DNA of 64,000 bases from assembly GCF_056746865.1 (NCBI RefSeq), contig NZ_CM163382.1; one strand, given 5' to 3'. The notes below the pieces were generated by a model that worked only from the letters and a program-made list of their open reading frames with translations, was not told the DNA's origin and did no database searches. Position 1 is the stretch's first letter. Each line of letters begins with the position of its first letter. This document shows, in pieces, positions 13,204 through 64,000 of this stretch. The translations under genes were made by a program, and so were the position numbers.

Positions 13204-13204
13204 C

Positions 13205-14050
13205 TTATTTCTCACTATCGACCAGGCCGCGCACGAAGGCACGCTGCATCACTAAAACAATCACTACTGGTGGGATCAGGGTTAACAACATCGCCGCCAT
13301 CACCGAGTTCCATTCCGTGGTGCCTTCGCCTGTGGCGATCATCCCTTTAATCCCTGCCACGGTGGTGCCTAGATCCACGTCGGTAATAATCAACAACGGC
13401 CACAAATACTGGTTCCAGCCGTAGATAAAGGTGATCACAAACAGCGCCGCCAGATTGGTTTTGGACAGCGGAAAAACGATGTCGCAAAAGAAACGCATTG
13501 GTGATGCGCCGTCGATCCGCGCGGCTTCCACCAGCTCATCCGGCAGCGTCATAAAGAACTGGCGGAACAGGAAGGTGGCGGTCGCCGAGGCCATCAGCGG
13601 CAGCGTTAAGCCGGCGTAGCTGTCGAGCATCTTCAGATTGGCGATGACTTCCACCGTCGGGAAAATACGCACTTCAACCGGCAACATCAGAGTAATAAAA
13701 ATCATCCAGAAGAAGAGGTTACGCAGCGGAAAACGAAACCAGACAATGGCAAATGCCGAGAGCATCGAGACGGTAATTTTGCCGAGCGTAATGCTAAACG
13801 CCATCACAAAGCTGTTAAGCAACATCCGCCAGAACGGCGCGCTATTCGTACCTACCCCGTTTACCCAGATGTTGTGGATATTTTCCAGCAGATGCGTGCC
13901 GGGGATGAGCGTCATCGGCGCGGCGTAGACGGCCTGTTTATCCAGCGTCGCCGCGACAAACGCCACGTACAGCGGGAAGAGGATCACCGCGATCCCGAGG
14001 ATCAGCATGGTATGGCTGAATATTGTCAGCCACGGACGGTTCTCAATCAT
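13205..14050 (-). CDS. ugpE: sn-glycerol-3-phosphate ABC transporter permease
   Basis: 281-aa polytopic membrane ORF in ugp order. Confidence 0.9.
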
Positions 14051-14934
14051 TGGTAACGCACCTTGCTTTCAACATAGCGGAACTGCACCACCGTCAGCAC
14101 GATGACGAGGAACATCAACACCACCGACTGCGCGGCAGACGAAGCCAGATCCAGTCCGGTAAAGCCTTCGCGGTAAATCTTATAAATCAGCGTCGTGGTG
14201 GCCTGAACCGGCCCGCCGGACGTGGCGGCGTCGATCACCGGGAAGGTGTCGAAGAAGGCGTATACCAGGTTCACCACCAGCAGGAAGAAACTCACCGGAG
14301 CGATAAGCGGCAGCGCAATCTTAAAGAAGCGGCGAATCGGGCCTGCACCGTCGATGGCTGCGGCTTCGATCAACGAACGGGGTATGGATTGCAGCGCGGC
14401 ATAGAAGAACAGGAAGTTGTAGCTAATTTGCTTCCACACCGAGGCAAACACCACCAGAAACATCGCCTGACCGCTGTTTTGCGCGTGGTTCCAGTCGTAG
14501 CCGAACTCAGCGAGAAAATGGGTGATCAGCCCGCGACCGGGGTTAAACAGGAAGATCCATAATACGGCGGCAACGGCGGGAGCCACGGCATACGGCAGCA
14601 GCATTAAGGTTTGATATAAACGGCTGCCGCGCACGATGTACTCCACCAGCGCTGCGAAGAACAGCGATACCAGCAAACCGCTGACGGTGACAAAGGTGCT
14701 GAATTTTATCGTCGTCCAGAAGGAGTCGAGATAGTAGCTGTCATGAAACAACGTGACGAAGTTATCCAGGCCGACAAACTGGCTGGAGAAACCAAACGGA
14801 TCGACGCTTTGTAGCGAGTACCACAACGCTTCGCCCGCAGGCCAGATAAAAAAGATAACGGTGATGATGAGCTGCGGCGCGACCAGCAAATAAGGCAGCC
14901 AGCGCGAGCGGAACACCGGACGGGATGATGACAT
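14047..14934 (-). CDS. ugpA: sn-glycerol-3-phosphate ABC transporter permease
   Basis: 295-aa polytopic membrane ORF; its stop overlaps the ugpE start. Confidence 0.9.
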
Positions 14935-14954
14935 TACGGTTAATTCCTGAACTG

Positions 14955-15022
14955 TGCCGGATGCGCTTCGCTTATCCGGCCTACACGCGATGCCAGGTCA
15001 GATAAGCGAAACGCATCCGACA
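14955..15022. repeat. REP/BIME element pair between ugpB and ugpA
   Basis: TGCCGGATGCGCTTCGCTTATCCGGCCTACA followed by an inverted REP-like copy. Confidence 0.7.
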
Positions 15023-15031
15023 TTACACTGA

Positions 15032-16348
15032 TTAAGACTTCGTCGATTTCTCAAAACGGCGCAGCAACTGATTTCCACGCTCAACGGCAGTATCCAGCGC
15101 CTGCTGTGGCGTCTTCTTACCGGTCCACACGCTCTCCAGCTCTTCATCCACAATCACGCGGATCTGCGGCATATTGCCCAGACGCAACCCTTTGGTGAAC
15201 GGCAACGGCGGCTTGTTCAGCATCTGACGCGTCGCGGTATCCGCCCCTGGGTTTTTCTCATAAAAGCCCTGCTCACGGGTCAGGTCATACGCCGCTTTGG
15301 TGATTGGCAGATAACCAGTTTTCTGATGCCACTCGGCAGCGTTTTCTGGCTTCGCGAGGAAGTCGAGGAACTTCGCCACACCCGTATAAGTTTCTTTATC
15401 TTTACCCTGCATTACCCACAGGCTGGCTCCACCGATAATGGCATTTTGCGGTGCATCTTTCGCATCGGCGTCGTAAGGCATCATGCCTACGCCGTAGTTA
15501 AATTTGGCGTACTCGCGAATGTTGGCAAGAGAACCGGAAGAGGCAGTGGTCATCGCGCAATCACCGTTATAGAACTTCTCAGTGGATTCATCCTTACGCC
15601 CGACGTAGCTGAAATCGCCCTTCTTGTTCATCTCTTCGAGCATAGTGATGTGTTTCACCTGCTCCGGCTTGTTGAACTCCAGCACCGCGTCTGTGCCGTC
15701 AAAGCCGTTGTTTTTGCTGGCAAACGGCAGACCGTTCCAGGCGCTAAAGTTTTCCAGTTGGATCCAGCCCTGCCAGCCGCTGGCGTAGCCGCACTTCATA
15801 CCGGAGGCTTTCAGTTTCGCGGCATAGTCCGCCAGATCCTGCCAGGTTTTCGGCGGCTGTTCCGGGTCTAAACCGGCTTTCTTGAAGGCGTCTTTGTTGT
15901 AATAGAGAACGGGAGTCGAGCTGTTGAACGGCTGGGAGAGTAAGTGGCCGGTTTTGCTGTCGGAGTAGTAACCTGAAACCGTCGGCACAAACTGCGACTC
16001 ATCGAACTGAATCCCCGCCTCTTTAAACACGTCATATACTGGTTTAATGGCTTTCGACGCCATCATGGTGGCGGTGCCAACTTCATAAACCTGCAAAATA
16101 GCAGGCGCGTTGCCGGTACGAAATGCGGCAATCCCCGCGCTTAAATTCTGTTCGTAGTTGCCTTTATAGGTCGGTACAATTTTGTAATCCGGGTTTTCGG
16201 CGTTAAAACGTTGGGCCAGAGAATCCACCTCTTTACCCAGTTCCCCTTCCATAGAATGCCAGAACGGAATGGTCGTCACTGCCTGTGCATTCCCCATTAA
16301 CGCCAGTCCGAGCGCCAGTGCTGAAGCTGTATAATGTAACGGTTTCAT
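15032..16348 (-). CDS. ugpB: Periplasmic sn-glycerol-3-phosphate-binding protein
   Basis: 438-aa ORF with a signal peptide ([23 protein letters not shown]). Confidence 0.92.
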
Positions 16349-16444
16349 CGTTTATCTCTCTTGTTGTACCGAATGCGCGAATTCACGCGTTTTATGCTCG
16401 CGGGGTAACATGACATGCTCGAATTACAGAAAAATAACTTTTTT

Positions 16445-16495
16445 GTTACATTTGTAAGATAGTAAGGTGTCAGAAAGATGACAAGGCGGTGACGG
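16445..16495 (-). promoter_or_regulatory. ugp promoter with candidate Pho boxes
   Basis: The minus strand reads CTTGTCATCTTTCTGACACCTTACTATCTTACAAATGTAACAAAA, containing TGTCA-type PhoB half-sites upstream of ugpB. Confidence 0.45.
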
Positions 16496-16585
16496 TACGG
16501 GTGAGGGAAAATGGGAGATGGGGCACGGATAAGCGGGAAAAATAGAAGGTCTGAATCAAACTCTACAGATTGCTCATCGTTTCAT

Positions 16586-16686
<101 letters not shown>

Positions 16687-16745
16687 TTTTACATTTGTAA
16701 CCTGTCTCAAAGGAGTCTTTTGACTCCTTATCAATCAACGTGTTA

Positions 16746-17459
16746 TTACCCGCCTAAATACGCACTTCTCACCGCTTCATTCGCCAGCAGCGCGTCGCCG
16801 GTATCGGAGAGCACTACATGACCGTTTTCCAGCACGTAGCCGCGATCCGCCAGCTTTAGCGCCTGGTTGGCGTTCTGCTCGACGAGGAAGATGGTCATCC
16901 CCTGCTCACGCAGCTGCTCGATGGTGTCGAAAATTTGCTGGATGATAATCGGCGCAAGACCGAGCGATGGCTCATCAAGCAACAATAAACGCGGGTTGCT
17001 CATCAGCGCGCGACCAATCGCCAGCATCTGCTGCTCACCGCCGGACATGGTGCCCGCCCGCTGAACACGGCGTTCATGGAGACGCGGAAACAGTTCATAC
17101 ACCCACTTTATGCGTTCCTGGAACTGGTCACGTTCAGCAAAAAAACCGCCCATCGCCAGGTTCTCTTCCACCGTCATCCGCGAGAAAACACGACGCCCTT
17201 CCGGGACAATCGCCACCGCTTCGCGCATGATTTTCGCCGTCTGCCAGTCGGTAATGTCTTTATCATCAAACACAATTCGCCCGCTGGTGGCGCGCGGGTC
17301 GCCGCATAATGTGCCGAGCAAGGTGGTTTTCCCCGCCCCGTTCGCGCCAATAAGGGTGACAATCTCGCCCTGATTGATATGCAGGCTCACCTCATGCAGC
17401 GCCTGGATTTTGCCGTAGTGGGCGCTGACTTTGTCAAAGGACAACATGACTTTTTCCAT
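16746..17459 (-). CDS. livF: Branched-chain amino acid ABC transporter ATPase
   Basis: Internal start MEKVMLSFDKVSAHYG gives 237 aa; Walker A (GANGAGKTT) present. Confidence 0.92.
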   Translation of the reverse strand: MEKVMLSFDKVSAHYGKIQALHEVSLHINQGEIVTLIGANGAGKTTLLGTLCGDPRATSGRIVFDDKDITDWQTAKIMREAVAIVPEGRRVFSRMTVEENLAMGGFFAERDQFQERIKWVYELFPRLHERRVQRAGTMSGGEQQMLAIGRALMSNPRLLLLDEPSLGLAPIIIQQIFDTIEQLREQGMTIFLVEQNANQALKLADRGYVLENGHVVLSDTGDALLANEAVRSAYLGG

Positions 17460-17460
17460 C

Positions 17461-18228
17461 TTATGCCTCACCTAAATAGGCACGGATCACGTCCGGGTTA
17501 TTACGGATTTGCTCCGGCGTACCGTTTGCCAGTGGCGTCCCCTGATTGACCACGTAAATTCGGTCCGAAATTCCCATCACCAGCTTCATATCGTGTTCAA
17601 TTAACAAGATAGTGGTGTTGTGATGATTGCGCAGTTCGGCAATCAGCTCATCCAGCTCTTTCGTCTCTTTCGGGTTAAGACCTGCCGCAGGTTCGTCGAG
17701 CATTAAAATCTCCGGCTGCGTCACCATGCAGCGGGCAATCTCCAGACGACGCTGGTCACCATAGGCCAGGTTACTCGCCTGACGGTTGGCATGTTCCAGC
17801 AAACCAATGCGCTCAAGCCAGGTAGCGGCGCGGTCGAGCGCTTCGCTCTGGGCGCGACGGAAAGAAGGCGTTTTCAAAAGGCCGGAGAACAGCCCGGTTT
17901 TCAGTTGCTGATGCTGTGCCACCAGCAGGTTTTCAATTACCGTCATTTCACGGAACAGACGCACATGCTGGAAGGTACGCACCACGCCCATGCGGGCAAT
18001 TTGCTGCCCCGGTAAACCTTCCAGATGCTGATCGCGCAGTAAAATAGTGCCGCCGGTGGGTTTATAGAATCCAGTCAGGCAGTTGAAGACCGTGGTTTTT
18101 CCGGCACCGTTAGGTCCGATTAACGAGACGATCTCCTGCGGGTACAGTTCAAGATTGACGTTGTTCACCGCCAGCAGGCCGCCGAAGCGCATCATCAGGC
18201 CGTTAACGGATAATAATGGCTGACTCAT
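17461..18228 (-). CDS. livG: Branched-chain amino acid ABC transporter ATPase
   Basis: 255-aa ORF with Walker A (GPNGAGKTT). Confidence 0.92.
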
Positions 18229-46357: not shown

Positions 46358-48644
46358 ACGCCCGGCGCTGTTATGGGGGATCGTCTGCCTGGTCATGGCG
46401 GCGGCGTTGCTGATCCTGTTGCCGCAATCACGACTGAACAGTAGCGTGCTGGCTATGTTACCCAAACAGGCGATGGGCGATATTCCTCCAGCGCTGAATG
46501 ACGGCTTTATGCAGCGTCTGGACCGCCAACTGGTGTGGCTGGTCAGCCCCGGTAAAGAGGCTAATCCCAGGGTGGCTCAGGAGTGGCTGACGCTGCTGCA
46601 AAAATCCGCTGCGCTCGGCGACGTTAAAGGGCCAATGGATGCCGCCAGCCAGCAGGCGTGGGGAGCGTTTTTCTGGCAGCACCGCAACGGCCTGGTTGAC
46701 CCCGACACCCGCGCGCGCCTGCAAAACGGCGGCGAAGCGCAGGCGCAGTGGATCCTCTCCCAGCTTTATTCTGCGTTCTCCGGGGTAAGCGGTAAGGAGC
46801 TGCAAAACGATCCGCTGATGTTAATGCGTGGCTCGCAGCTGGCGATGGCGAAAAACGGCCAGCGTTTGCGGCTGATGGACGGCTGGCTGGTGACGCAGGA
46901 TCCCCAGGGCAACTACTGGTATCTGCTGCACGGCGAACTGGCGGGATCGTCGTTTGATATGCAGCAAACCCACCAGCTCATCACGACCCTGAATACGCTG
47001 GAAAAGGATCTGAAAACGCGTTACCCGCAGGCGCAGTTGCTCTCGCGCGGCACGGTGTTTTACAGCGATTACGCCAGCCAACAGGCGAAGCAGGATATCT
47101 CCAACCTGGGCGTGGCAACGCTGCTGGGGGTGATATTACTGATTGTGGCGGTGTTCCGCTCTTTACGCCCATTGCTGCTTTGCGTGATTTCCATCGGCAT
47201 CGGCGCGCTGGCGGGAACGGTCGCCACCTTGTTGATTTTCGGCGAATTACACCTGATGACGCTGGTGATGAGCATGAGCGTTATCGGCATTTCCGCTGAC
47301 TACACGCTCTATTACCTCACCGAGCGGATGGTGCACGGCAATGACGTTTCGCCGTGGCAAAGCCTGGCGAAAGTGCGCAATGCCCTGCTGCTGGCGCTGC
47401 TCACCACCGTGGCGGCGTATCTGATTATGATGCTCGCCCCCTTCCCCGGCATTCGCCAGATGGCGATTTTTGCCGCCGTCGGGTTGAGCGCCTCCTGTCT
47501 GACCGTCCTGTTCTGGCATCCGTGGCTGTGCCGTGGCCTGCCGGTGCGTCCGGTTCCGGCGATGGCGCTGATGCTGCGCTGGCTGGCTGCGTGGCGGCGT
47601 AATAAAAAACTGTCGCTGGGTCTGCCCGTCGCGCTGGCGCTGTTTTCGCTGGCGGGGATGTCAATGCTGCGCGTCGACGACGATATCTCGCAGTTACAGG
47701 CGCTACCGCAGCATATTCTGGCCCAGGAGAAAGCCATTACCGCCCTGACCGGACAAAGCGTCGATCAAAAATGGTTTGTAGTTTACGGCGACTCTCCACA
47801 GCAAACATTGCGGCGGCTGGAGAAATTTACCGCCTCGCTGGAGAATGCGAAAAAAGAGGGGCTTATCAGCAACTACCGCACCATTCCGCTGAACTCCCTG
47901 GCGCGGCAGGAGGAAGATTTACATCTGCTGAAAACGGCTGCCCCGACAGTAACAAAAGCACTGCAAAATGCCGGGCTGGCGGCAGTGAATCCGGATCTCA
48001 ACGCCATGCCAGTGAAGGTCGATGAATGGCTGGCAAGCCCCGCCAGTGAAGGCTGGCGTCTGCTGTGGCTGACGCTGAAAAACGGCGAAAGCGGCGTACT
48101 GGTGCCGGTTGAAGGGGTTAAAAGTAGCGCGTTGTTGCAGGAAATCGCCAGCGATTACCCTGGCGGCATTGCCTGGGTTGATCGCAAAAGCACCTTTGAT
48201 GAGTTGTTCGCACTTTACCGCTACGTCTTAACCGGTTTGTTGCTGGTGGCGCTGGCGGTGATTGCCTGCGGCGCAGTGGCCCGCCTCGGCTGGCGCAAAG
48301 GGCTTATCAGCCTGGTGCCTTCGGTACTTTCGCTGGGCTGCGGTCTGGCAGTGCTGGCGATGAGCGGGCAGGCGGTGAATCTCTTTTCGCTACTGGCGCT
48401 GGTGCTGGTGCTTGGCATCGGCATCAATTACACGCTGTTTTTCAGTAATCCGCGCGGTACACCGTTAACTTCCCTACTGGCGATCACGCTGGCAATGCTC
48501 ACCACCTTGCTGGCGCTGGGAATGCTGGTATTCAGCGCCACCCAGGCCATCAGCAGTTTTGGCATTGTGCTGGTGAGCGGTATTTTCACCGCCTTCCTGC
48601 TTTCGCCGCTGGCTATGCCCGATAAAAAGAGAACAAAAAAATGA
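46326..48644 (+). CDS. MMPL/RND-superfamily exporter (start codon uncertain)
   Basis: 772-aa ORF with two blocks of about 6 TM helices separated by soluble domains. Confidence 0.75.
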   Translation: MTNANVLPPSKRPALLWGIVCLVMAAALLILLPQSRLNSSVLAMLPKQAMGDIPPALNDGFMQRLDRQLVWLVSPGKEANPRVAQEWLTLLQKSAALGDVKGPMDAASQQAWGAFFWQHRNGLVDPDTRARLQNGGEAQAQWILSQLYSAFSGVSGKELQNDPLMLMRGSQLAMAKNGQRLRLMDGWLVTQDPQGNYWYLLHGELAGSSFDMQQTHQLITTLNTLEKDLKTRYPQAQLLSRGTVFYSDYASQQAKQDISNLGVATLLGVILLIVAVFRSLRPLLLCVISIGIGALAGTVATLLIFGELHLMTLVMSMSVIGISADYTLYYLTERMVHGNDVSPWQSLAKVRNALLLALLTTVAAYLIMMLAPFPGIRQMAIFAAVGLSASCLTVLFWHPWLCRGLPVRPVPAMALMLRWLAAWRRNKKLSLGLPVALALFSLAGMSMLRVDDDISQLQALPQHILAQEKAITALTGQSVDQKWFVVYGDSPQQTLRRLEKFTASLENAKKEGLISNYRTIPLNSLARQEEDLHLLKTAAPTVTKALQNAGLAAVNPDLNAMPVKVDEWLASPASEGWRLLWLTLKNGESGVLVPVEGVKSSALLQEIASDYPGGIAWVDRKSTFDELFALYRYVLTGLLLVALAVIACGAVARLGWRKGLISLVPSVLSLGCGLAVLAMSGQAVNLFSLLALVLVLGIGINYTLFFSNPRGTPLTSLLAITLAMLTTLLALGMLVFSATQAISSFGIVLVSGIFTAFLLSPLAMPDKKRTKK

Positions 48645-49225
48645 TCAAACCCACATTCTGGCGAGCGTTCGCCCTGACCGCTACGCTTATCCTCACCGGC
48701 TGTAGCCACTCGCAACCGGAACAGGAAGGTCGCCCACAGGCGTGGCTGCAACCTGGCACGCGCATCACGCTGCCGGCACCAGGGATTTCGCCCGCCGTTA
48801 ATTCCCAGCAACTATTGAGCGGCAGCTTCAACGGCAAAACCCAGTCTCTGCTAGTGATGCTTAACGCCGACGACCAGAAAATCACCCTTGCCGGGCTGTC
48901 GTCGGTCGGCATTCGTCTGTTTCTGGTGACCTACGATGCGCAAGGGCTACGCGCCGAGCAATCCATCGTCGTCCCACAGTTGCCGCCCGCAAGTCAGGTG
49001 CTGGCTGACGTGATGCTTAGCCACTGGCCGATTAGCGCCTGGCAACCGCAACTCCCCGCTGGATGGACGCTTCGCGACAACGGTGACAAACGCGAACTGC
49101 GTAACGCCAGCGGCAAACTGGTCACGGAAATCACCTATCTGAATCGCCAGGGAAAACGCGTGCCAATCAGCATTGAACAGCATGTCTTTAAATACCACAT
49201 CACCATTCAATATTTAGGTGACTGA
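48641..49225 (+). CDS. Lipoprotein (DUF3261-like, possibly LolB-like)
   Basis: 194-aa ORF with a lipobox (LTGC). Confidence 0.65.
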   Translation: MIKPTFWRAFALTATLILTGCSHSQPEQEGRPQAWLQPGTRITLPAPGISPAVNSQQLLSGSFNGKTQSLLVMLNADDQKITLAGLSSVGIRLFLVTYDAQGLRAEQSIVVPQLPPASQVLADVMLSHWPISAWQPQLPAGWTLRDNGDKRELRNASGKLVTEITYLNRQGKRVPISIEQHVFKYHITIQYLGD

Positions 49226-50396
49226 TATGATTTACATTTCCGCCGTCGGCATGATCAACGCCCTGGGAAATAACCTTGACGATATCGCAGCCAACCTGAC
49301 TCGCGGTGTCGCTCCCGGCATGCGCCCGCGCGCAGGCTGGTTGCAGGGGCATCCGCAGGCGGTCCTGGCTGGCGTGGATGGCGAGCTTCCGGTTATCCCG
49401 GAAAAATTCGCTGCGCACCGCTCGCGCAACAATCAGATCCTGCTGGCGGCGCTGGCGCAGATCCAGCCGCAGGTTGATGACGCTATTGCGAAATATGGCC
49501 GCGAGCGCATCGCGATTGTGCTTGGCACCAGCACCTCCGGCCTGCATGAAGGCGACACGCACGTTAACCTGCGCACCCACGGGCAGCCGAGCACCACGTG
49601 GCACTATGCACAACAAGAGCTCGGCGATCCGTCGCGTTTTCTCAGCCACTGGCTGGCGCTCGACGGCCCAGCTTATACCCTTTCAACCGCCTGCTCCTCC
49701 AGTGCCAGAGCGATGATCAGCGGGCGCAGGCTTATCGAGGCGGGGCTGGTCGATGCCGCCATTGTGGGTGGTGCAGACACCCTGAGCCGAATGCCGATTA
49801 ACGGTTTTCACAGCCTCGAATCGCTCTCGCCAACCTTATGTCAGCCGTTTGGTCGTGACCGCGCGGGCATCACCATTGGCGAAGGTGCGGGGCTGATGCT
49901 GTTGACCCGCGAACCGCAGCCCATCGCCTTGCTGGGCGTCGGTGAATCGAGCGACGCTTATCATATTTCGGCCCCGCATCCACAGGGCGAAGGCGCAATT
50001 CGCGCCATTAACCAGGCGCTGGCTGATGCGCAGCTTACGCCGGATGAGGTGGGCTATATCAACCTGCACGGCACCGCCACACAACTCAACGACCAGATTG
50101 AATCGATGGTGGTAAACGCCCTGTTTGGCGAACGCGTACCGTGCAGCTCCACCAAACATTTGACCGGACACACGCTGGGCGCAGCGGGCATTACCGAAGC
50201 GGCAATCAGTATGTTGATCTTAGAGCGTGATTTACCGCTGCCCGCTCAGGACTTCAGCCTGTCGCCGCGCGATCCCACGCTGCCACCGTGCGGCATTATC
50301 GAACAACCACAGCCGCTGGCACGTCCGGTGATCCTGTCCAATTCCTTCGCCTTTGGCGGCAATAACGCCAGCATTCTGCTCGGGAGGGTTTCGTGA
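49218..50396 (+). CDS. Beta-ketoacyl-ACP synthase (KS, ApeO-like)
   Basis: Active-site Cys (LSTACSSSARAM), HGTAT, and NSFAFGGNNASIL. Confidence 0.85.
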   Translation: MTDMIYISAVGMINALGNNLDDIAANLTRGVAPGMRPRAGWLQGHPQAVLAGVDGELPVIPEKFAAHRSRNNQILLAALAQIQPQVDDAIAKYGRERIAIVLGTSTSGLHEGDTHVNLRTHGQPSTTWHYAQQELGDPSRFLSHWLALDGPAYTLSTACSSSARAMISGRRLIEAGLVDAAIVGGADTLSRMPINGFHSLESLSPTLCQPFGRDRAGITIGEGAGLMLLTREPQPIALLGVGESSDAYHISAPHPQGEGAIRAINQALADAQLTPDEVGYINLHGTATQLNDQIESMVVNALFGERVPCSSTKHLTGHTLGAAGITEAAISMLILERDLPLPAQDFSLSPRDPTLPPCGIIEQPQPLARPVILSNSFAFGGNNASILLGRVS

Positions 50397-50857
50397 GCCA
50401 CTATTTATCCCCCGGCGCTTATCTGCCCCACGACGCGCCCATGTTACTGCTGGAAGAAGTGGTGAGCGTCAGCGATGACAGCGCGGTGTGCCGTGTAACG
50501 GTCTCGCCCAGTGGCGTACTGGCACCGTTTCTCGACCCGGACGGCAATCTCCCTGGCTGGTTTGCCCTTGAATTGATGGCGCAAACCGTCGGCGTCTGGT
50601 CTGGCTGGCATCGCCACCAGCAGGGCAAAAACAGTATTGAGTTAGGGATGGTACTGGGCGCACGTGAATTGCTTTGCGCCGCTGGCATTCTGCCCGCAGG
50701 CCAGACGCTGACCATTACCGTCAAACTCCTGATGCAAGACGATCGCTTCGGCAGTTTTGAGTGCAGCATCAACAACGGCACGGCAACGGGCCGCATTAAC
50801 ACCTTCCAGCCGACCGCGGAAGAACTTACCACCCTGTTTCAACAAGGAGCGTCCTGA
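50393..50857 (+). CDS. Hotdog-fold dehydratase (FabA/FabZ-like, ApeP-like)
   Basis: 154-aa ORF overlapping the neighbouring genes; hotdog-like length and motif spacing. Confidence 0.6.
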   Translation: MSHYLSPGAYLPHDAPMLLLEEVVSVSDDSAVCRVTVSPSGVLAPFLDPDGNLPGWFALELMAQTVGVWSGWHRHQQGKNSIELGMVLGARELLCAAGILPAGQTLTITVKLLMQDDRFGSFECSINNGTATGRINTFQPTAEELTTLFQQGAS

Positions 50858-51588
50858 TGAGTCGTTCAGTTCTGGTTACTGGTGCCAGCAAAGGCATTGG
50901 TCGCGCCATCGCCTGCCAACTGGCGGCAGACGGCTTTAATATTGGCGTTCACTATCACCGTGACGCCACAGGCGCTCAGGAAACGCTAAATGCCATTGTC
51001 GCCAACGGGGGTAACGGGCGTTTGCTCAGTTTCGACGTCGCAAACCGCGAACAGTGTCGGGAAGTGCTGGAGCACGAAATCGCGCAAAACGGTGCCTGGT
51101 ACGGCGTGGTTAGTAACGCCGGGATCGCCCGCGATGCCGCTTTTCCGGCTTTAAGCGATGACGACTGGGATGCGGTGATCCACACCAATCTCGACAGTTT
51201 CTACAACGTTATTCAGCCGTGCATTATGCCGATGATCGGCACACGCCAGGGTGGACGCATCATCACGCTGTCCTCGGTTTCCGGCGTGATGGGCAATCGC
51301 GGACAGGTGAACTACAGCGCTGCCAAAGCCGGAATTATCGGCGCAACAAAAGCACTGGCTATCGAACTCGCGAAGCGCAAAATCACCGTCAACTGCATCG
51401 CGCCGGGGCTTATTGATACCGGGATGATCGAAATGGAAGAGAGCGCCCTGAAAGAGGCAATGTCGATGATCCCCATGAAACGCATGGGCCAGGCGGAAGA
51501 AGTTGCCGGGCTTGCCAGCTATTTAATGTCTGATATTGCGGGTTACGTCACCCGCCAGGTTATTTCCATCAACGGAGGGATGTTATGA
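50857..51588 (+). CDS. 3-oxoacyl-ACP reductase (SDR, FabG-like)
   Basis: VLVTGASKGIGRAIA Rossmann motif and YSAAKAG catalytic motif. Confidence 0.88.
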   Translation: MSRSVLVTGASKGIGRAIACQLAADGFNIGVHYHRDATGAQETLNAIVANGGNGRLLSFDVANREQCREVLEHEIAQNGAWYGVVSNAGIARDAAFPALSDDDWDAVIHTNLDSFYNVIQPCIMPMIGTRQGGRIITLSSVSGVMGNRGQVNYSAAKAGIIGATKALAIELAKRKITVNCIAPGLIDTGMIEMEESALKEAMSMIPMKRMGQAEEVAGLASYLMSDIAGYVTRQVISINGGML

Positions 51589-52814
51589 CACGTCGCGTAG
51601 TGATTACAGGAATGGGCGGCGTGACTGCCTTTGGTGAAAACTGGCAGGACGTTTCCGCGCGTCTGCTGGCGTATGAGAATGCAGTGCGCAAAATGCCGGA
51701 GTGGCAGGTCTACGATGGTCTGCACACCCTGCTTGGCGCGCCTGTTGATGATTTCACGCTACCGGAGCACTACACCCGCAAGCGTATCCGTGCGATGGGC
51801 CGCGTGTCGCAAATGTCGACCCGTGCCAGCGAGCTGGCGTTAGAGCAGGCAGGATTGATTGGCGATCCGATATTAACCAGCGGCGAAACGGGCATTGCGT
51901 ACGGTTCATCGACCGGCAGTACCGGTCCGGTGAGCGAATTTGCCACCATGCTGACGGAAAAGCACACCAATAACATCACCGGCACCACCTATGTACAGAT
52001 GATGCCGCACACCACCGCCGTTAATACCGGTCTGTTTTTCGGCCTGCGCGGGCGGGTGATCCCGACCTCCAGCGCCTGTACCTCCGGCAGCCAGGCGATC
52101 GGTTATGCGTGGGAAGCCATTCGCCACGGTTATCAAACGGTGATGGTTGCTGGTGGTGCCGAAGAGTTATGCCCTTCAGAAGCAGCGGTATTTGATACAC
52201 TTTTCGCCACCAGCCAGCACAATGATGCGCCGAAAACCACACCTTCACCGTTCGATGAAAACCGCGACGGGCTGGTGATTGGTGAAGGCGCAGGTACGCT
52301 GATTCTTGAAGAACTGGAGCACGCCAAAGCGCGCGGCGCGACCATTTACGGTGAAATCGTCGGCTTTGCGACTAACTGCGACGCGGCACATATTACCCAG
52401 CCTCAGCGTGAGACCATGCAATATTGTATGGAAAAATCGTTAAAAATCGCCGGGTTAAGTGCAAGTGATATCGGCTATATTTCGGCGCATGGTACGGCGA
52501 CCGATCGTGGTGATATGGCAGAAAGTCTGGCGACAGCAACCATTTACGGTGATAATGTGCCGCTCTCCTCGCTGAAAAGTTATTTTGGTCATACGCTTGG
52601 TGCCTGTGGCGCGCTCGAAGCCTGGATGAGTCTGCAAATGATGCGCGAAGGTTGGTTTGCGCCTACGCTAAACCTGAATAAACCAGACCCGAACTGTGGC
52701 GCGCTGGATTACATCATGCATGAAGCCCGCAAGGTTGATTGTGAGTTTTTGCAGAGTAACAACTTTGCCTTTGGCGGCATTAATACATCCATCATCATTA
52801 AACGTTGGCCCTGA
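51585..52814 (+). CDS. Beta-ketoacyl-ACP synthase (KS, ApeR-like)
   Basis: Active-site Cys (SSACTSGSQAIG), HGTAT and GHTLGACG. Confidence 0.88.
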   Translation: MTRRVVITGMGGVTAFGENWQDVSARLLAYENAVRKMPEWQVYDGLHTLLGAPVDDFTLPEHYTRKRIRAMGRVSQMSTRASELALEQAGLIGDPILTSGETGIAYGSSTGSTGPVSEFATMLTEKHTNNITGTTYVQMMPHTTAVNTGLFFGLRGRVIPTSSACTSGSQAIGYAWEAIRHGYQTVMVAGGAEELCPSEAAVFDTLFATSQHNDAPKTTPSPFDENRDGLVIGEGAGTLILEELEHAKARGATIYGEIVGFATNCDAAHITQPQRETMQYCMEKSLKIAGLSASDIGYISAHGTATDRGDMAESLATATIYGDNVPLSSLKSYFGHTLGACGALEAWMSLQMMREGWFAPTLNLNKPDPNCGALDYIMHEARKVDCEFLQSNNFAFGGINTSIIIKRWP

Positions 52815-52815
52815 T

Positions 52816-53403
52816 ATGTATCGGATAGTTCTGGGGAAAGTTTCGACCTTAAGCGCAGCTCCACTGCCACCGGCTTTACGCGATCAAGCACCGCAAGGTC
52901 CACGACGCGAACGCTGGCTGGCGGGGCGTGCATTACTTTCGCACACGCTTTCCCCGCTACCGGAGATCATCTATGGCGAACAAGGCAAACCGGCATTCGC
53001 GCCGGAAACGCCGCTATGGTTCAACTTAAGCCATAGCGGTGACGATATCGCCCTGCTGTTGAGCGATGAAGGCGAAGTCGGCTGCGATATCGAAGTGATT
53101 CGCCCGCGCGCCAACTGGCGCTGGCTGGCGAACGCCGTGTTCAGCCTCGGGGAACACGCTGAGATGGACGCCGTGCATCCCGATCAGCAACTGGAAATGT
53201 TCTGGCGCATCTGGACGCGCAAAGAAGCCATCGTTAAACAGCGTGGCGGCAGCGCCTGGCAAATCGTCAGCGTAGACAGCACCTATCACTCATCACTGTC
53301 AGTCAGCCATTGTCAGCTAGAAAATTTAAGCCTGGCGATCTGCACCCCTACCCCCTTTACGCTCTCCGCCGACAGTGTGCAATGGATCGATTCAGTTAAC
53401 TGA
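52816..53403 (+). CDS. acpT: 4'-phosphopantetheinyl transferase (holo-ACP synthase 2)
   Basis: Internal start MYRIVLGKVSTLSAAPLPPALRD gives 195 aa; the ATG lies 1 bp after the stop of the upstream KS gene. Confidence 0.88.
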   Translation: MYRIVLGKVSTLSAAPLPPALRDQAPQGPRRERWLAGRALLSHTLSPLPEIIYGEQGKPAFAPETPLWFNLSHSGDDIALLLSDEGEVGCDIEVIRPRANWRWLANAVFSLGEHAEMDAVHPDQQLEMFWRIWTRKEAIVKQRGGSAWQIVSVDSTYHSSLSVSHCQLENLSLAICTPTPFTLSADSVQWIDSVN

Positions 53404-56032: not shown

Positions 56033-58835
<2,803 letters not shown>

Positions 58836-59024
58836 CACCTCCCAACGCGCCGTTATTTCCTGACGGCGCAGTAGACTTCTGCCAAATATCGACTCACGTC
58901 ACATTTTTTTGATCACGATTTAGTCCCCTAAAATGTGAGACGCTTCGATCCTCTTTTTCGCCTGTTCACCTACTATACGCTTGAAGTTGTCCATGATTGT
59001 CCATAGACAACTGTAAATGTTCAG

Positions 59025-59779
59025 GTGCGCGCCATGAAATCATTGAGTAAGTCGTCACAAATACCGCTCTATCAACAAGTGGTGGAGTGGATAAGAGAAA
59101 ATATTTATACCGGGGATCTGGTGGAAGACGATCGCATTCCTTCGGAATACCAGATTATGGATATGCTGGAAGTGAGTCGGGGAACCGTTAAAAAAGCTGT
59201 CGCCCAACTGGTAAAACAAGGCGTGTTGATTCAGGTCCAGGGGAAGGGAACATTTGTCAAAAAAGAGAACGTGGCATATCCGTTAGGTGAAGGATTATTG
59301 TCATTCGCGGAATCGCTGGAAAGCCAGAAAATACACTTTACCACTGAAGTTATTACGTCACGGATTGAACCGGCTAATCGTTATGTGGCAGAGAAATTAA
59401 GAATAACGCCCGGTCAGGATATTCTTTACCTTGAGCGTTTACGTTCAATTGGTGATGAAAAAGCGATGCTGATAGAGAACCGTATCAATATTGAGCTATG
59501 CCCCGGCATCGTGGAAATCGATTTTAATCAACACAATTTATTTCCAACAATAGAAAGTTTGTCGAAAAGAAAAATTCGTTACTCGGAAAGTCGCTATGCC
59601 GCGCGATTAATTGGTAATGAACGCGGTCATTTTTAGATATCTGTGAAGATGTACCCGTTTTGCATCTGGAGCAATTAGTCTTTTTCTCCCGAGAGTTACC
59701 CGTTGAGTTTGGCAACGTCTGGTTAAAAGGAAATAAATATTATCTGGGCACCGTGCTGCAACGGCGGGAATTGAGTTAA
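59025..59779 (+). pseudogene. GntR/HutC-family transcriptional regulator, frameshifted in a T5 run (about 59630..59634)
   Basis: N-terminal winged HTH (IPSEYQIMDMLEVSRGTVKKAV) and a UTRA-like C-terminal domain; the frame stops at 59634..59636, but the +1 frame continues DICEDVPVLHLEQLVFFSRELPVEFGNVWLKGNKYYLGTVLQRRELS to 59779. Confidence 0.65.
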
Positions 59780-59803
59780 ATACACTTTTTTATGAGGAAT
59801 AAA

Positions 59804-60277
59804 ATGCAAGGCATACAGTTTCAGGAAAATTATATTCAACGACTTCCGGCAGGGTTAAGCGTTGAACAGATCATCCGTCAGTTAGCGCAACCGTTGGTTG
59901 CTGCTGAGCTGGTGGTCCCTGATTTTGCCGATCACGTACTGAAACGTGAGGCGACGTACCCAACGGGGCTGCCTACCGAACCACCGTGCGTCGCCATTCC
60001 GCACACGGACCATAAATATGTCAGGCACAATGCAATTGCCGTCGGCATCCTTCCGGAACCGGTAGAGTTTGCCGATATGGGCGGCGATCCTGACCCCGTA
60101 CATGTCAGGGTGATTTTTTTGCTCGCCTTAAGTGAAAGTAATAAACAATTAAATGCCCTGGGCTGGATTATGGAGATGATTCAGGATACGCCCTTTATGC
60201 GCGCCCTGCTTACGATGGAAACAACAGAAATACACACAGTAATCTTAAACAAAATGAAAGAACGAGGTGAAATATGA
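59804..60277 (+). CDS. PTS EIIA component (galactitol-family)
   Basis: Phosphorylation-site His motif VAIPHTDHKYV, GatA-like; GAGGA ribosome-binding site upstream of the ATG at 59804. Confidence 0.75.
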   Translation: MQGIQFQENYIQRLPAGLSVEQIIRQLAQPLVAAELVVPDFADHVLKREATYPTGLPTEPPCVAIPHTDHKYVRHNAIAVGILPEPVEFADMGGDPDPVHVRVIFLLALSESNKQLNALGWIMEMIQDTPFMRALLTMETTEIHTVILNKMKERGEI

Positions 60278-60555
60278 GTCAAACCATTTTATTTGTCTGC
60301 GCCACGGGTATTGCCACATCCACGGCGGTAACAGAAAAAGTCATGGAATATTGTAAAGAGCACGGTCTTAACGTCAATTATTCCCAAACCAACGTTGCCT
60401 CTTTACCTGGAAATACTGACGGCGTAGCACTGGTAGTCTCAACGACTAAAGTGCCTTATGAACTCGACGTCCCGGTGGTTAACGGCTTGCCGATTATTAC
60501 CGGTATTGGCGAAGAGAAAGTACTGGCGCAAATTGTTTCGATCCTTAAAAAGTAA
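60274..60555 (+). CDS. PTS EIIB component (galactitol-family)
   Basis: 93-aa ORF with the active-site Cys motif ILFVCATGIATS. Confidence 0.8.
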   Translation: MSQTILFVCATGIATSTAVTEKVMEYCKEHGLNVNYSQTNVASLPGNTDGVALVVSTTKVPYELDVPVVNGLPIITGIGEEKVLAQIVSILKK

Positions 60556-60631
60556 TTAATAATAATTAATTTCAACCCACTCCATCAGGCGCTAACGCGA
60601 GGTGCGCTCTCGCCTGAAAAAGAGGTTTATT

Positions 60632-61990
60632 ATGAACGATATCGCGCATACCCTCTATAATATTGTGCAATATATATTGGGATTTGGTCCCACGGTAATG
60701 TTGCCGTTGGTGTTATTTATTCTTGCTCTCTTTTTTAAAGTAAAACCCGCTAAAGCCTTACGTTCGTCATTAACGGTCGGCATTGGTTTTGTCGGTATTT
60801 ATGCCATTTTCGATATTCTTACCAGCAATGTCGGGCCAGCGGCCCAGGCGATGGTTGAACGCACCGGAATTAATTTACCGGTGGTGGATTTAGGCTGGCC
60901 GCCGCTTTCCGCTATTACATGGGGTTCGCCAATTGCCCCGTTTGTTATTCCCCTGACTATTCTGATTAACGTGGCGATGCTGGCGTTAAATAAAACCCGC
61001 ACCGTTGACGTAGATATGTGGAACTACTGGCATTTTGCCCTTGCCGGTACGCTGGTTTATTACAGCACCGGCAGCCTGTTCTTTGGTTTGCTGGCAGCGG
61101 CGATTGCTGCGGTGGTAGTACTTAAACTCGCCGACTGGTCTGCGCCACTGGTACAAAAATACTTTGGCCTGGAAGGGATCTCTTTGCCGACGCTCTCTTC
61201 GGTGGTGTTCTTTCCGGTCGGTCTGTTGGTCGACAAAATCATCGACCATATCCCCGGCCTCAATCGTATTCATATCGATCCGGAAACCGTACAGAAAAAG
61301 TTTGGCATATTCGGCGAACCGATGATGGTTGGTACTATTCTGGGCATTCTGCTCGGCGTAATTGCCGGATACGATTTCAAAAAAGTCTTGCTGCTTGGCA
61401 TCAGCATTGGCGGTGTGATGTTCATCCTGCCACGCATGGTTCGCATTCTGATGGAAGGTTTATTACCGCTGTCTGAAGCCATTAAAAAGTATCTCAATGC
61501 CAAATACCCTGACCGTGACGATCTCTATATCGGCCTGGATATCGCCGTTGCCGTAGGTAACCCAGCGATTATCTCCACCGCCCTGCTGCTGACGCCAATC
61601 TCGGTCTTTATCGCGTTTGTCCTTCCGGGTAATGAAGTCCTGCCGCTTGGCGACCTTGCCAACCTGGCGGTAATGGCGTCGATGATTGCTTTAGCCAGCC
61701 GTGGCAACATTTTCCGCACCGTTCTGGCGGCGATTCCGGTGATTATTGCCGATCTGTGGATTGCGACTAAAATCGCGCCGTTTATTACCGGAATGGCGAA
61801 AGACGTTAATTTCAAATTTGCCGAAGGCTCCAGCGGCCAGGTCTCCAGTTTCCTTGATGGCGGTAACCCGTTCCGCTTCTGGCTGCTGGAAATCTTCAAC
61901 GGCAATCTCATCGCCATTGGTCTGGTGCCGGTTATCGCCCTGGTACTGTATGGTATTTTCCGAATGACGCGGAGCACGGTTTATGCCTGA
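60632..61990 (+). CDS. PTS EIIC permease (GatC-like)
   Basis: About 452 aa; LGFGPTVMLP and GPAAQAMVERTGINLPVVDLGWP resemble GatC. Confidence 0.8.
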   Translation: MNDIAHTLYNIVQYILGFGPTVMLPLVLFILALFFKVKPAKALRSSLTVGIGFVGIYAIFDILTSNVGPAAQAMVERTGINLPVVDLGWPPLSAITWGSPIAPFVIPLTILINVAMLALNKTRTVDVDMWNYWHFALAGTLVYYSTGSLFFGLLAAAIAAVVVLKLADWSAPLVQKYFGLEGISLPTLSSVVFFPVGLLVDKIIDHIPGLNRIHIDPETVQKKFGIFGEPMMVGTILGILLGVIAGYDFKKVLLLGISIGGVMFILPRMVRILMEGLLPLSEAIKKYLNAKYPDRDDLYIGLDIAVAVGNPAIISTALLLTPISVFIAFVLPGNEVLPLGDLANLAVMASMIALASRGNIFRTVLAAIPVIIADLWIATKIAPFITGMAKDVNFKFAEGSSGQVSSFLDGGNPFRFWLLEIFNGNLIAIGLVPVIALVLYGIFRMTRSTVYA

Positions 61991-63491
61991 TAACAGCGCA
62001 GCTATCGTTATCGATATTGGCACCACCAATTGCAAAGTCACCTGCTTTTCCTGCCTGGACGCAACGACGTTGGGCGCGCATAAATTCGTGACGGCAAAAC
62101 AGATCTCCCCACAGGGCAATGTCGATTTCGATATCGACGCCCTCTGGCAGGAGGTCCGCCAGGCGATAGCGCAACTGAACGCCGCTTCGCCGCTGCCAGT
62201 CAGGCGGATAAGCATTGCCAGTTTTGGCGAGTCAGGCGTGTTCCTTGACGAGCATGGCGAGATCCTGACGCCAATGCTGGCATGGTATGACCGTCGCGGT
62301 GAAGAGTATCTGGCTACACTTAGCGAGGCAGACAGTGCGGCACTTTATGACATTTGCGGGTTACCGCTGCACAGCAATTACTCTGCCTTCAAAATGCGTT
62401 GGTTGCTGGAACATTACCCACTGCGTAATCGCCGCGGCCTGCGTTGGCTACATGCGCCGGAAGTACTGCTCTGGCGGCTGACCGGCGAACAGCGCACGGA
62501 TATCACCTTAGCCAGCCGCACGCTGTGTCTTGACGTGCGCAAAGGCGAATGGTCAGCGAAAGCGGCGGCGTTGTTACACGTTCCCTGTTCAGCATTTGCG
62601 CCATTGGTGCAGCCAGGCGAACACGCCGGATGGGTCAGCGAGTCGCTCTGCAAAACGGTTGGGTTCTCGCAACCGGTCAGCGTGACGCTGGCCGGACATG
62701 ACCATATGGTGGGTGCGCGAGCGTTGCAGATGATGCCGGGCGATATCCTTAACTCGACGGGGACCACAGAAGGCATTCTGCAACTGGATACACAACCGAC
62801 GCTGGATGAACAGGCCAAACGTGACAAGCTGGCAAACGGCTGTTATTCGCTTGCAAACCAGTTCACCCTGTTTGCGTCGCTGCCCGTGGGCGGTTTCGCT
62901 CTGGAGTGGCTGCGTAACACGTTCCGGCTAACCGATGAGGAGATCGCCGCATCACTTACTCGCGGACATGCGGATTACCTGGCGGGGAACTGGTCGCTCG
63001 ATGACATTCCCCTCTTTATTCCACATCTTCGCGGTTCGGGTTCGCCCTATAAAAATCGCCATACTCGTGGATTATTTTATGGGCTTGGCGATACGTTAAA
63101 TATCGACATGTTAATTGCCAGCGTCTCACTGGGATTAACCATGGAATTTGCCAACTGCTTCGCCTGTTTTAATGTGCCTGGCACCAGCGCGTTAAAAGTG
63201 ATAGGTCCGGCAACCCAAAATCCCCTTTGGCTGCAATTAAAAGCGGATATTTTACAGCGTCCGGTTGAAGCAATTGCATTTAACGAGGCGGTTTCTGTCG
63301 GAGCATTATTAACTGCCGCACCGGATATTCCACCGCCGCAAGTTACCATAGCCCAACGTTTGTTACCGAATCGGGCGAGATACCATCAATTACAGCGTTA
63401 TCAGCACAAATGGAAAAGCTGGTATCAGTTGAAATTACAGCAAGAAGGCGTGATGCCATTACACCATCGGGAGGAGCACTATGTTGAGTAA
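61983..63491 (+). CDS. FGGY-family carbohydrate kinase
   Basis: 502-aa ORF whose N-terminus AIVIDIGTTNCKV is a sugar-kinase/actin-fold phosphate-1 motif. Confidence 0.75.
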   Translation: MPDNSAAIVIDIGTTNCKVTCFSCLDATTLGAHKFVTAKQISPQGNVDFDIDALWQEVRQAIAQLNAASPLPVRRISIASFGESGVFLDEHGEILTPMLAWYDRRGEEYLATLSEADSAALYDICGLPLHSNYSAFKMRWLLEHYPLRNRRGLRWLHAPEVLLWRLTGEQRTDITLASRTLCLDVRKGEWSAKAAALLHVPCSAFAPLVQPGEHAGWVSESLCKTVGFSQPVSVTLAGHDHMVGARALQMMPGDILNSTGTTEGILQLDTQPTLDEQAKRDKLANGCYSLANQFTLFASLPVGGFALEWLRNTFRLTDEEIAASLTRGHADYLAGNWSLDDIPLFIPHLRGSGSPYKNRHTRGLFYGLGDTLNIDMLIASVSLGLTMEFANCFACFNVPGTSALKVIGPATQNPLWLQLKADILQRPVEAIAFNEAVSVGALLTAAPDIPPPQVTIAQRLLPNRARYHQLQRYQHKWKSWYQLKLQQEGVMPLHHREEHYVE

Positions 63492-63750
63492 AACCGTGGA
63501 GGTCAGAAACAGTACTGGCCTGCATGCACGTCCGGCGGCGTGTCTGGTGAAAGCCGCCAAAAAGTTTAGCTGTAAAGTGACGCTGCATTATGAGGGTAAT
63601 GATATTAATGCCACCAGCATGATGAATATTATGCGCGCCGGAATAAAAGGCGGCAAAACGGTGGAAATACGCTGCGAAGGCGATGATGAAAATGAGGCAA
63701 TACAAACTCTCACCACCTTATTTCGTGACCGCTTCGGTGAAGCTGAATAA
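63481..63750 (+). CDS. HPr-like phosphocarrier protein
   Basis: 89-aa ORF with the active-site His motif NSTGLHARPAA. Confidence 0.8.
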   Translation: MLSKTVEVRNSTGLHARPAACLVKAAKKFSCKVTLHYEGNDINATSMMNIMRAGIKGGKTVEIRCEGDDENEAIQTLTTLFRDRFGEAE

Positions 63751-63780
63751 TTAACTGATATTAAAAGATGAGGTTTTCAA

Positions 63781-64000
63781 ATGCCATTAGTTAATGGACG
63801 GATACTGCTCGACCGCATTCAGGAAAAACGGGTATTAGCGGGCGCGTTTAATACCACCAATCTGGAGACGACAATTTCAATTTTAAACGCTATTGAGCGT
63901 TCGGGATTGCCTAACTTCATTCAGATTGCGCCCACCAATGCACAACTCTCGGGATACGATTACATTTATGAAATCGTGAAACGTCACGCCGATAAAATGG
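63781..64000 (+). CDS. Class II ketose-bisphosphate aldolase (GatY/KbaY-like), N-terminal fragment; continues beyond the window end
   Basis: MPLVNGRILLDRIQEKRVLAGAFNTTNLETTISILNAIERSGLPNFIQIAP... resembles class II aldolase N-termini. Confidence 0.7.
   Translation, partial: MPLVNGRILLDRIQEKRVLAGAFNTTNLETTISILNAIERSGLPNFIQIAPTNAQLSGYDYIYEIVKRHADKM

Follow-up and report, generated by a model that had tools for sequence, protein, structure and literature searches.

In the fruBKA system and the enterobacterial D-tagatose phosphotransferase system (PTS), uptake of a ketose by a PTS with its own HPr-like protein is followed by a second, ATP-dependent phosphorylation to the 1,6-bisphosphate and by cleavage through a class II aldolase. 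The Fru-family EII of these systems phosphorylates C1 and a 1-phosphoketose kinase of the PfkB family phosphorylates C6. The galactitol (gat) route depends on PfkA for its kinase step. Here we analyse an operon that lies directly after nikR in a stretch of 64,000 nucleotides (NCBI RefSeq assembly GCF_056746865.1, contig NZ_CM163382.1; hereafter the window) and that encodes a Gat-family PTS, a sugar kinase of the FGGY family, an HPr paralogue and a class II aldolase. Comparison across phyla and active-site motifs suggest that its substrate is phosphorylated twice before aldol cleavage, a reading to which we assign a probability of about 0.6. An earlier reading of this DNA, made from the letters alone (the sequence-only reading), had called the union of a PTS, a kinase and a bisphosphate aldolase unusual. 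As such it is not, since the textbook routes for fructose (FruBKA), tagatose and galactitol follow the same logic; the remark does apply to the family of the kinase, which is FGGY and not PfkB or PfkA. The novelty lies in an FGGY kinase taking that role, and in a widespread, self-contained module to which the literature searched assigns no substrate.

The operon and its conserved kinase–aldolase pair

Seven genes, all on the plus strand, stand behind the nickel operon nikABCDE-nikR in the order regulator, EIIA, EIIB, EIIC, kinase, HPr, aldolase. Because successive genes overlap (EIIA/EIIB by 4 nucleotides, EIIC/kinase by 8, kinase/HPr by 11) or nearly abut, they constitute one operon; the gap between regulator and EIIA is 24 nucleotides. 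The six genes that follow the regulator had been listed by the sequence-only reading, and all six were recovered on this strand at or near the positions it gave; the profile matches of EIIA, EIIC, HPr and the aldolase greatly exceed chance expectation.

58834–64000, plus strand: portion of the island inside the window; its left junction is the end of nikR
59034–59779, plus strand: GntR/HutC-type regulator (helix-turn-helix plus UTRA domain), first gene of the operon, a pseudogene here
59804–60277 (alternative ATG at 59792), plus strand: PTS EIIA of the mannitol/fructose/Ntr type (PF00359, PTS_EIIA_2, E 1.9e-32)
60274–60555, plus strand: PTS EIIB of the Gat type (NF007643, the GatB model, E 2e-16, below its equivalog cut-off)
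60632–61990, plus strand: PTS EIIC of the galactitol (Gat) transporter family (TIGR00827, EIIC-GAT, 475.7 bits)
61983–63491, plus strand: FGGY sugar kinase of 502 amino acids, uncharacterised subfamily, catalytic motif GHDHM
63481–63750, plus strand: HPr paralogue of 89 amino acids with the His15 motif GLHARPA (TIGR01003, 105.6 bits against a cut-off of 47.9)
63781–64000, plus strand: start of a Zn-dependent class II ketose-(bis)phosphate aldolase, of which 73 codons fall inside the window

Evidence for two phosphorylations comes from the distribution of the genes. We examined eight contexts with precomputed Pfam annotation and 80 loci of species-representative genomes, which were classed by tblastn with seed proteins. 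Homologues of the kinase are found across Enterobacterales at 60–80% identity and, at 32–40%, in enterococci, Listeria, lactobacilli, Selenomonadales, bacilli, staphylococci, Gilliamella, Coriobacteriia and Actinobacteria. In 77 of the 80 loci a PF01116 aldolase of the NF005943 type is found no more than 6.5 kb from the kinase; the other three are truncated contigs. Three arrangements account for these 77.

Type 1, 41 loci: regulator, the three EII genes (A, B and C), kinase and aldolase, joined by HPr only in Proteobacteria; no dehydrogenase (Escherichia, Citrobacter, Salmonella, Klebsiella oxytoca, Cedecea, Rahnella, Enterococcus, Selenomonas, Pectinatus, lactobacilli and others)
Type 2, 23 loci: the type 1 set plus one or two Zn-dependent polyol(-phosphate) dehydrogenases and at times SurE (Pantoea, Erwinia, Raoultella, Serratia, Buttiauxella, Bacillus, Staphylococcus and Gilliamella)
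Type 3, 13 loci, all in Actinobacteria: no PTS, and the invariant order aldolase, island-type kinase, xylulokinase-like FGGY kinase

A Gat-type PTS without a second kinase is thus present in 64 loci. The second kinase of type 3 scores 305 bits against TIGR01312 (xylulokinase) and has the XylB-type motif GGGDN; these loci also contain a GntR regulator, MFS or ABC transporters and often a Zn-dehydrogenase. No locus combines the PTS with the xylulokinase-like kinase. This mutual exclusion suggests that a kinase for the distal position can replace the PTS and that two phosphorylations are needed. On the simplest reading, PTS and xylulokinase-like kinase would be interchangeable as the source of one phosphate, the family kinase would provide the second and the aldolase would take the doubly phosphorylated ketose. 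Clustering of open reading frames over the 80 loci gave no further conserved enzyme (isomerase, epimerase or hydrolase), only regulators, transporters and unrelated neighbours. One of the type 2 dehydrogenases is GatD-like (238 bits).

The kinase is a member of the FGGY family: PF00370 and PF02782 are recorded for its 98%-identical cluster representative and for all homologues. Its scores stay under the cut-offs of all NCBIfam equivalogs (the best, XylB, 146.2 against 380.25 bits; GlpK, 129.4 against 590; FucK, 119.3 against 470.9), and the match to the FucK hidden Markov model (119 bits) covers the N-domain. The closest solved structures are glycerol kinases (E 1e-24). Motifs were compared in an alignment with seven K-12 FGGY kinases (FucK, RhaB, XylB, LsrK, GlpK, AraB and LyxK), to all of which overall identity is 17–23%. 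The catalytic Asp of GlpK, XylB, FucK and RhaB corresponds in the alignment to Asp240 of the island kinase, which lies in the motif GHDHM, a motif invariant across the kinase family. Only FucK (GHDTQ) and RhaB (SHDTA) among the seven also have a His immediately before this Asp; the residue pair is G-D in XylB, LsrK, GlpK and the second kinase of the actinobacterial loci and F-D in AraB and LyxK. Likewise, the motif STGTTE has counterparts only in FucK (SSGTWE) and RhaB (SSGTWS), and both the FG-x-x-G and the S-x-GT-x-E motifs of the kinase go with these two enzymes. FucK and RhaB phosphorylate C1 of 2-ketoses. Their motifs in the island kinase therefore suggest a C1 kinase, with the PTS or the xylulokinase-like enzyme acting on the distal hydroxyl. 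The role proposed for the PTS is consistent with the action of Gat-family EII on galactitol. Overlap of the EIIC stop with the kinase start is kept in E. coli, Salmonella, Enterococcus, Pectinatus, Listeria and Clostridium. A review of the FGGY family mentions no PTS-linked subfamily (PMC3245297).

The full-length aldolase, read from an identical genome (L001), has 283 amino acids and scores 556.9 bits against NF005943 (cut-off 364) and 221.4 bits against TIGR00167 (cut-off 215.6). It is 36% identical to GatY and about equally distant from the tagatose- and fructose-bisphosphate aldolase models. Its Zn ligands are kept, LHLDH, NVHG and IHGGSG aligning with His83, His180 and His208 of AgaY, as expected of a PF01116 aldolase. 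The distal phosphate is bound in E. coli FbaA by Arg331, which belongs to the 'DPR' motif. The E. coli island aldolase has an Arg aligned with FbaA Arg331 and the AgaY 'DPR' arginine, in a C-terminal segment whose alignment is uncertain, and the same column holds Arg in the proteins of Salmonella, Klebsiella, Pantoea, Raoultella and Actinobacteria.

The PTS is complete in its phosphoryl-transfer residues. EIIA (24% identity to K-12 GatA) aligns at the active-site His motif AIPH, EIIB (36% identity to K-12 GatB) at the N-terminal active-site Cys, and the HPr paralogue has His15. With an EIIC-GAT protein, whose Salmonella orthologue carries PF03611, and separate EIIA and EIIB bearing the phosphorylatable His and Cys, the system belongs to the Gat PTS family. 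Galactitol specificity is another matter: all three proteins fall below the galactitol equivalog cut-offs (GatA, 54.6 against 139 bits; GatB, 60.2 against 95; EIIC-GAT, 475.7 against 542.2), and the island has no gene for a GatD-type dehydrogenase or for GatZ. The HPr paralogue is below the cut-offs of the PtsH, NPr and FPr models. Its gene accompanies the module in Proteobacteria and at a few bacillus-type loci (L060, L065, L074 and L079), and is absent from the remaining Firmicutes versions and all actinobacterial ones.

Three side observations concern relatives of these genes. Enterococcus raffinosus, E. malodoratus and E. avium (L039, L040 and L042, about 10930–18000) have more genes directly downstream of the type 1 module, namely a second PF01116 aldolase (about 50% identity), an Mga/PRD-type regulator, a Zn-dehydrogenase and a distant FGGY kinase (23–25%), which may form a second, related sugar module. 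In the actinobacterial loci L054, L071, L077, L089, L092 and L093 (about 12000–13300), a third FGGY kinase, 23–26% identical to the island kinase, comes right after the trio, so that three FGGY genes are consecutive. A database protein of 313 amino acids (P0082) joins the C-terminal part of EIIC-GAT to FGGY_C, with 97% identity to the island kinase, and probably arose as an artefact, by frameshift or fusion, at the EIIC/kinase overlap of one assembly.

Proposed pathway, substrate and alternatives

In the pathway we propose, the phosphoryl group would pass from phosphoenolpyruvate through EI, the HPr paralogue, EIIA and EIIB to EIIC, and the sugar would be imported and phosphorylated at the primary hydroxyl distal to its keto group. 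The FGGY kinase, the product of a gene that would be translationally coupled to that of EIIC, would then use ATP to phosphorylate C1, beside the keto group, to give a ketose-1,ω-bisphosphate. The Zn-dependent class II aldolase would split this into dihydroxyacetone phosphate and an aldose phosphate, glyceraldehyde-3-phosphate in the case of a hexulose. A second phosphorylation ahead of aldol cleavage had been anticipated by the sequence-only reading, and finds support in the comparative genomics and active-site motifs described above.

The gene content also bears on the substrate. Since the type 1 module has neither a dehydrogenase nor an isomerase, the imported compound should itself be a 2-ketose, and the dehydrogenases added in type 2 would be in keeping with an E. 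coli form that, lacking them, takes up the ketose directly. The sequence-only reading had asked whether the island continues with such an enzyme, and in the identical genome of E. coli CFSAN061770 it does not: no isomerase or dehydrogenase follows past the window end, the aldolase being the last gene and yhhJ the next. This ending argues for a 2-ketose and against a polyol, so that 'galactitol-family' would describe the transporter family and not the substrate. The ω-phosphates of common ketoses (fructose-6-phosphate, xylulose-5-phosphate and sedoheptulose-7-phosphate) need no special kinase or aldolase, and class II TIM-barrel aldolases yield 3S products. On these grounds the most economical and most plausible choice would be a rare ketohexose of the D-tagatose type, but this is only a guess; our confidence in any particular sugar is much lower than in the double-phosphorylation mechanism.

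Several points weigh against this pathway. Over its whole length the kinase is no closer to FucK (22% identity) than to XylB (22%), the motif argument is built on only seven reference kinases, and we know of no FGGY kinase shown to act on an already phosphorylated sugar. The aldolase column aligned with FbaA Arg331 varies within the family, with Lys in the proteins of Enterococcus, Listeria, Pectinatus and Gilliamella and either Ser or Asn in those of Bacillus, Staphylococcus, Selenomonas and Lacticaseibacillus, so that bisphosphate binding through that residue is not established. The column holds His in YdjI, one of the PF01116 aldolases that cleave ketose-1-monophosphates. With regard to a tagatose-type substrate, Salmonella already has a separate tagatose route (PMC11000858).

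Some of these points would suit a bacterial copy of the ketohexokinase, aldolase B and triokinase scheme, in which the PTS or xylulokinase-like enzyme would produce a ketose-1-phosphate, the aldolase would release dihydroxyacetone phosphate and a free aldehyde such as glyceraldehyde, and the FGGY kinase would phosphorylate the aldehyde. Such a scheme explains the co-occurrence of the PTS or second kinase with the kinase and aldolase equally well; aldolases of the YdjI kind are a precedent for its cleavage step, the distal-phosphate arginine is missing in some family members, and the kinase is about as near to glycerol kinases as to anything else. We nevertheless consider it unlikely. The actinobacterial substitute for the PTS is of the XylB type in both motif and score, which points to a terminal kinase not acting on C1, and hence one that could not give the C1 phosphate the aldolase would require. 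Moreover, the H-D motif of the island kinase is of the FucK/RhaB and not the GlpK type, and type 1 loci place the kinase straight behind EIIC, with codons overlapping. Less probable again is a kinase that works in parallel with the PTS, either rescuing sugar left unphosphorylated by facilitated diffusion or dephosphorylation, or being controlled by the HPr paralogue. There is precedent for FGGY kinases under PTS protein control, EIIA-Glc and HPr~P acting on GlpK and HPr on LsrK, and the kinase and HPr genes overlap in E. coli. However, all 13 PTS-free actinobacterial loci keep two kinases side by side next to the aldolase, a pair that salvage alone does not need, and the HPr gene is missing from most Firmicutes and all Actinobacteria and is not beside the kinase in Salmonella.

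The database name 'PTS galactitol transporter' would imply a polyol system like the gat operon, and EIIB and EIIC are indeed of the Gat family and related clusters in other genera do contain GatD-like dehydrogenases. We give this very little credence, for both a dehydrogenase and GatZ are lacking from the form seen in E. coli, Salmonella and Enterococcus, all three PTS proteins miss the galactitol cut-offs and E. coli already has its gat operon elsewhere. It is just as improbable that the island is decaying and non-functional in the strain of the window, with the regulator frameshift described below as the first sign of pseudogenisation. The regulator is broken, and its premature stop could possibly exert polarity on the downstream genes, but the six structural genes are intact, strains with an intact regulator differ over this 5.2-kb stretch by a single-base indel only, and loss of a HutC-type repressor leads more often to constitutive expression.

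Double phosphorylation by PTS and FGGY kinase remains the reading we prefer. The further claim, that the kinase would be the first FGGY member shown to act on a sugar phosphate and the module an undescribed route for a rare ketose (and, in the variants with dehydrogenases, its polyols), we regard as tentative, with somewhat less than an even chance of being right. If the kinase does act on a phosphosugar, known FGGY chemistry would be extended. If the route exists it may matter for occupation of gut niches, the module ranging from E. coli O157:H7, uropathogenic strains and Salmonella to enterococci and Actinobacteria. The operon is carried by about 30% of complete E. coli genomes, by subspecies I Salmonella and by many plant- and gut-associated Enterobacterales; with no known substrate, it thus represents a gap in the metabolic maps of much-studied pathogens. 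An invariant kinase–aldolase pair, fed by either a Gat-type PTS or a xylulokinase-like kinase, defines a testable pathway whose candidates are narrowed to 2-ketoses.

Island boundaries, spread and control region

The operon forms an accessory island of about 5.8 kb, which starts at window position 58834, directly after nikR, and ends about 637 bases past the window. Homology to K-12 (blastn) is lost at window position 58833 and regained at window-equivalent 64638, 6 nucleotides past the aldolase stop. Between nikR and yhhJ, exactly the site of the island, MG1655 has rhsB-yhhH-yrhC-yhhI. This agrees with the sequence-only reading, which had placed rhsB at this position in K-12 and taken the locus for a strain-variable catabolic island; K-12 does not carry the island there. 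G+C content is 0.40–0.49 across the regulator, EIIA and EIIB genes against 0.55–0.63 in the nik operon. Window positions 58800–64000 match E. coli CFSAN061770 at 100%, in which the aldolase is followed by the core genes yhhJ-rbbA-yhiI on the opposite strand. The full island is present in 1,635 of 5,426 complete E. coli genomes (about 30%), which bears out its strain variability; every copy is chromosomal, with one per genome, and carriers include O157:H7, O145, NU14, ABU 83972 and B2 urinary strains. In 539 further genomes the match is limited to the last 35–40 or so bases of nikR, as judged from the ten such matches listed. The locus is probably a horizontally acquired, self-contained catabolic operon.

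In O157:H7 Sakai the island genes are ECs4349–ECs4355, followed by a hicAB module. This toxin–antitoxin pair lies between the island aldolase and yhhJ in O157:H7 strains (L008, 8394–9025; L010, 19578–20209); the lineage of the window is without it and has an aldolase–yhhJ gap of only about 90 bp. On the other side, upstream of nikA (window positions about 46800–53400), is a fatty-acid-synthase-like cluster that resembles an aryl-polyene biosynthesis locus, with genes for an MMPL transporter, DUF3261, two ketoacyl-ACP synthases, an ApeP dehydratase, FabG2 and AcpT. It is annotated in O157 Sakai too, as ECs4333–4342.

Upstream of the regulator gene we predict three control elements.

58934–58949, plus strand: CRP-like site TGTGA-N6-TCGAT, a prediction resembling a class II CRP site
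58971–58976, plus strand: candidate −10 element TACTAT
58985–59012, plus strand: predicted GntR/HutC operator AGTTGTCCATGATTGTCCATAGACAACT, with the palindrome TTGTC-N4-GACAA and cross-species conservation

The last of these is a 28-nucleotide block (AGTTGTmCATGATTGTCyATAGACAACT) that is nearly invariant in 18 enterobacterial loci (Escherichia, Citrobacter, Salmonella, Klebsiella, Cedecea, Rahnella and others) with otherwise diverged upstream regions, and that keeps a constant distance to the regulator start codon. Palindromes of the TTGTC-N4-GACAA style are typical of GntR/HutC operators, and the block, just downstream of the −10 element, is probably the operator to which the regulator would bind. 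The CRP-like site lies about 42 nucleotides upstream of the inferred transcription start; its TGTGA half-site and spacing are kept in the 18 loci, with TCGAT or GCCAT as second half. A simple sigma-70 scan gave no plus-strand promoter in the region upstream of the regulator, and promoter and terminator scans gave nothing above shuffled expectation; the promoter model is based on cross-species conservation and not on simple scans. On this model the operon would be activated by CRP and repressed by its own first-gene GntR/HutC regulator, in the pattern of an autorepressed catabolic operon. A third conserved upstream element, GTCACA-T7-GATCAC (TCACA-N6/7-GATCA; about 58898–58916), stands upstream of the CRP-like site in 18 of the 18 enterobacterial loci and reads ATCAC-N6-GTGAT in Salmonella. 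It fits neither the orientation of the CRP consensus nor a GntR operator.

The NCBIfam matches of the regulator are to HutC-subfamily models, every one below its cut-off. That the operon follows a broken regulator, as had been noted before, is due to a T6→T5 deletion at 59625–59629, which brings a stop after residue 200 of 248, within the effector-binding UTRA domain. RefSeq labels the regulator of an identical genome 'frameshifted'. Alignment with the intact allele of strain 118UI has one single-base gap and is otherwise the same, and across a 5.2-kb stretch the closest genomes differ from the window only by this indel; the regulator is also intact in O157:H7. The T5 allele may stem from a homopolymer sequencing error, although it is common to three assemblies from different sources. 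With its regulator truncated, the operon is probably derepressed, or constitutive, in the strain of the window. Strains with a natural repressor frameshift, such as that of the window, would be ready-made constitutive mutants for phenotyping.

Relation to known systems

The island has an orthologue in a Salmonella enterica cluster (L002), which has the same seven families on one strand, in the order regulator, EIIA, EIIB, EIIC, kinase, aldolase, HPr, and keeps the EIIC/kinase overlap. Identities to the island (tblastn) are 81% for the regulator, 89% for EIIC and the aldolase, about 62–63% for the kinase and 44% for HPr. The Salmonella cluster differs in that aldolase and HPr are swapped, HPr does not adjoin the kinase and the chromosomal site is another. 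From its gene content and the LT2 annotation, we take the cluster to correspond to STM3779–STM3785, next to SPI-3. These genes were described as a complete PTS of unknown specificity in 2013 (PMC3604774) and as ArcA-activated (PMC3075218). In 2024 they were still placed under 'Unknown sugars', and were expressed in co-culture with a permissive caecal community (PMC11000858). Our search of the literature in full text gave no functional study of, or substrate assignment for, the island or its Salmonella orthologue, so the description of the locus as one of unknown substrate stands.

Two PTS operons of pathogenic E. coli were considered and set aside. The frz operon of avian pathogenic E. coli is told apart by its gene composition, which comprises a PTS of the Fru type, a kinase of the ROK family and an activator of the Mga type. 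The vpe operon of uropathogenic E. coli (Martinez-Jehanne 2012) is set aside on its location: in NCTC 86 it shares ROD 40 with deoK (PMC5382810), and the site of the island, between nikR and yhhJ, has no deoK in its neighbourhood.

Among K-12 systems, the YdjI/YdjH cluster resembles the island in that a PF01116 aldolase (YdjI to island aldolase, E 5e-43) is encoded beside a kinase of its own; the cluster also has Zn-dehydrogenases and transporters and serves an unusual ketose. Unlike the island, it has a kinase of the PfkB type and no PTS, and YdjI cleaves a 1-monophosphate and has His in place of the Arg of the island aldolase. FucK and RhaB share with the island kinase the His before the catalytic Asp and the FG-x-x-G and S-x-GT-x-E motifs, at an identity of only 19–23%; their substrates are unphosphorylated 6-deoxy-ketoses, and their partner aldolases are of another fold (PF00596), unlike that of the island.

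The gatYZABCDR operon of K-12 has in common with the island Gat-family EIIA, EIIB and EIIC, a GatY-like class II aldolase and triose phosphates as the predicted end products. It differs in having GatD and GatZ, which the island does not, whereas the island has its own kinase and its own HPr. In MG1655, gatC and gatR are annotated as pseudogenes, gatR being interrupted by IS3E, so that the strain's own galactitol PTS is damaged; this matters for K-12 as a heterologous host of the island.

With the fructose and tagatose routes the island would have its logic in common: both would take a ketose through PTS uptake, a second ATP phosphorylation and class II aldol cleavage. The island is nonetheless no PTS and 1-phosphoketose kinase pathway of the fructose/tagatose type, which is ruled out by a kinase that is FGGY and not PfkB, and by a Gat-family EIIC. 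The Gat-family EII and the FucK/RhaB-like motifs of the FGGY kinase suggest instead that the island phosphorylates the two positions in the reverse order, the distal hydroxyl before C1.

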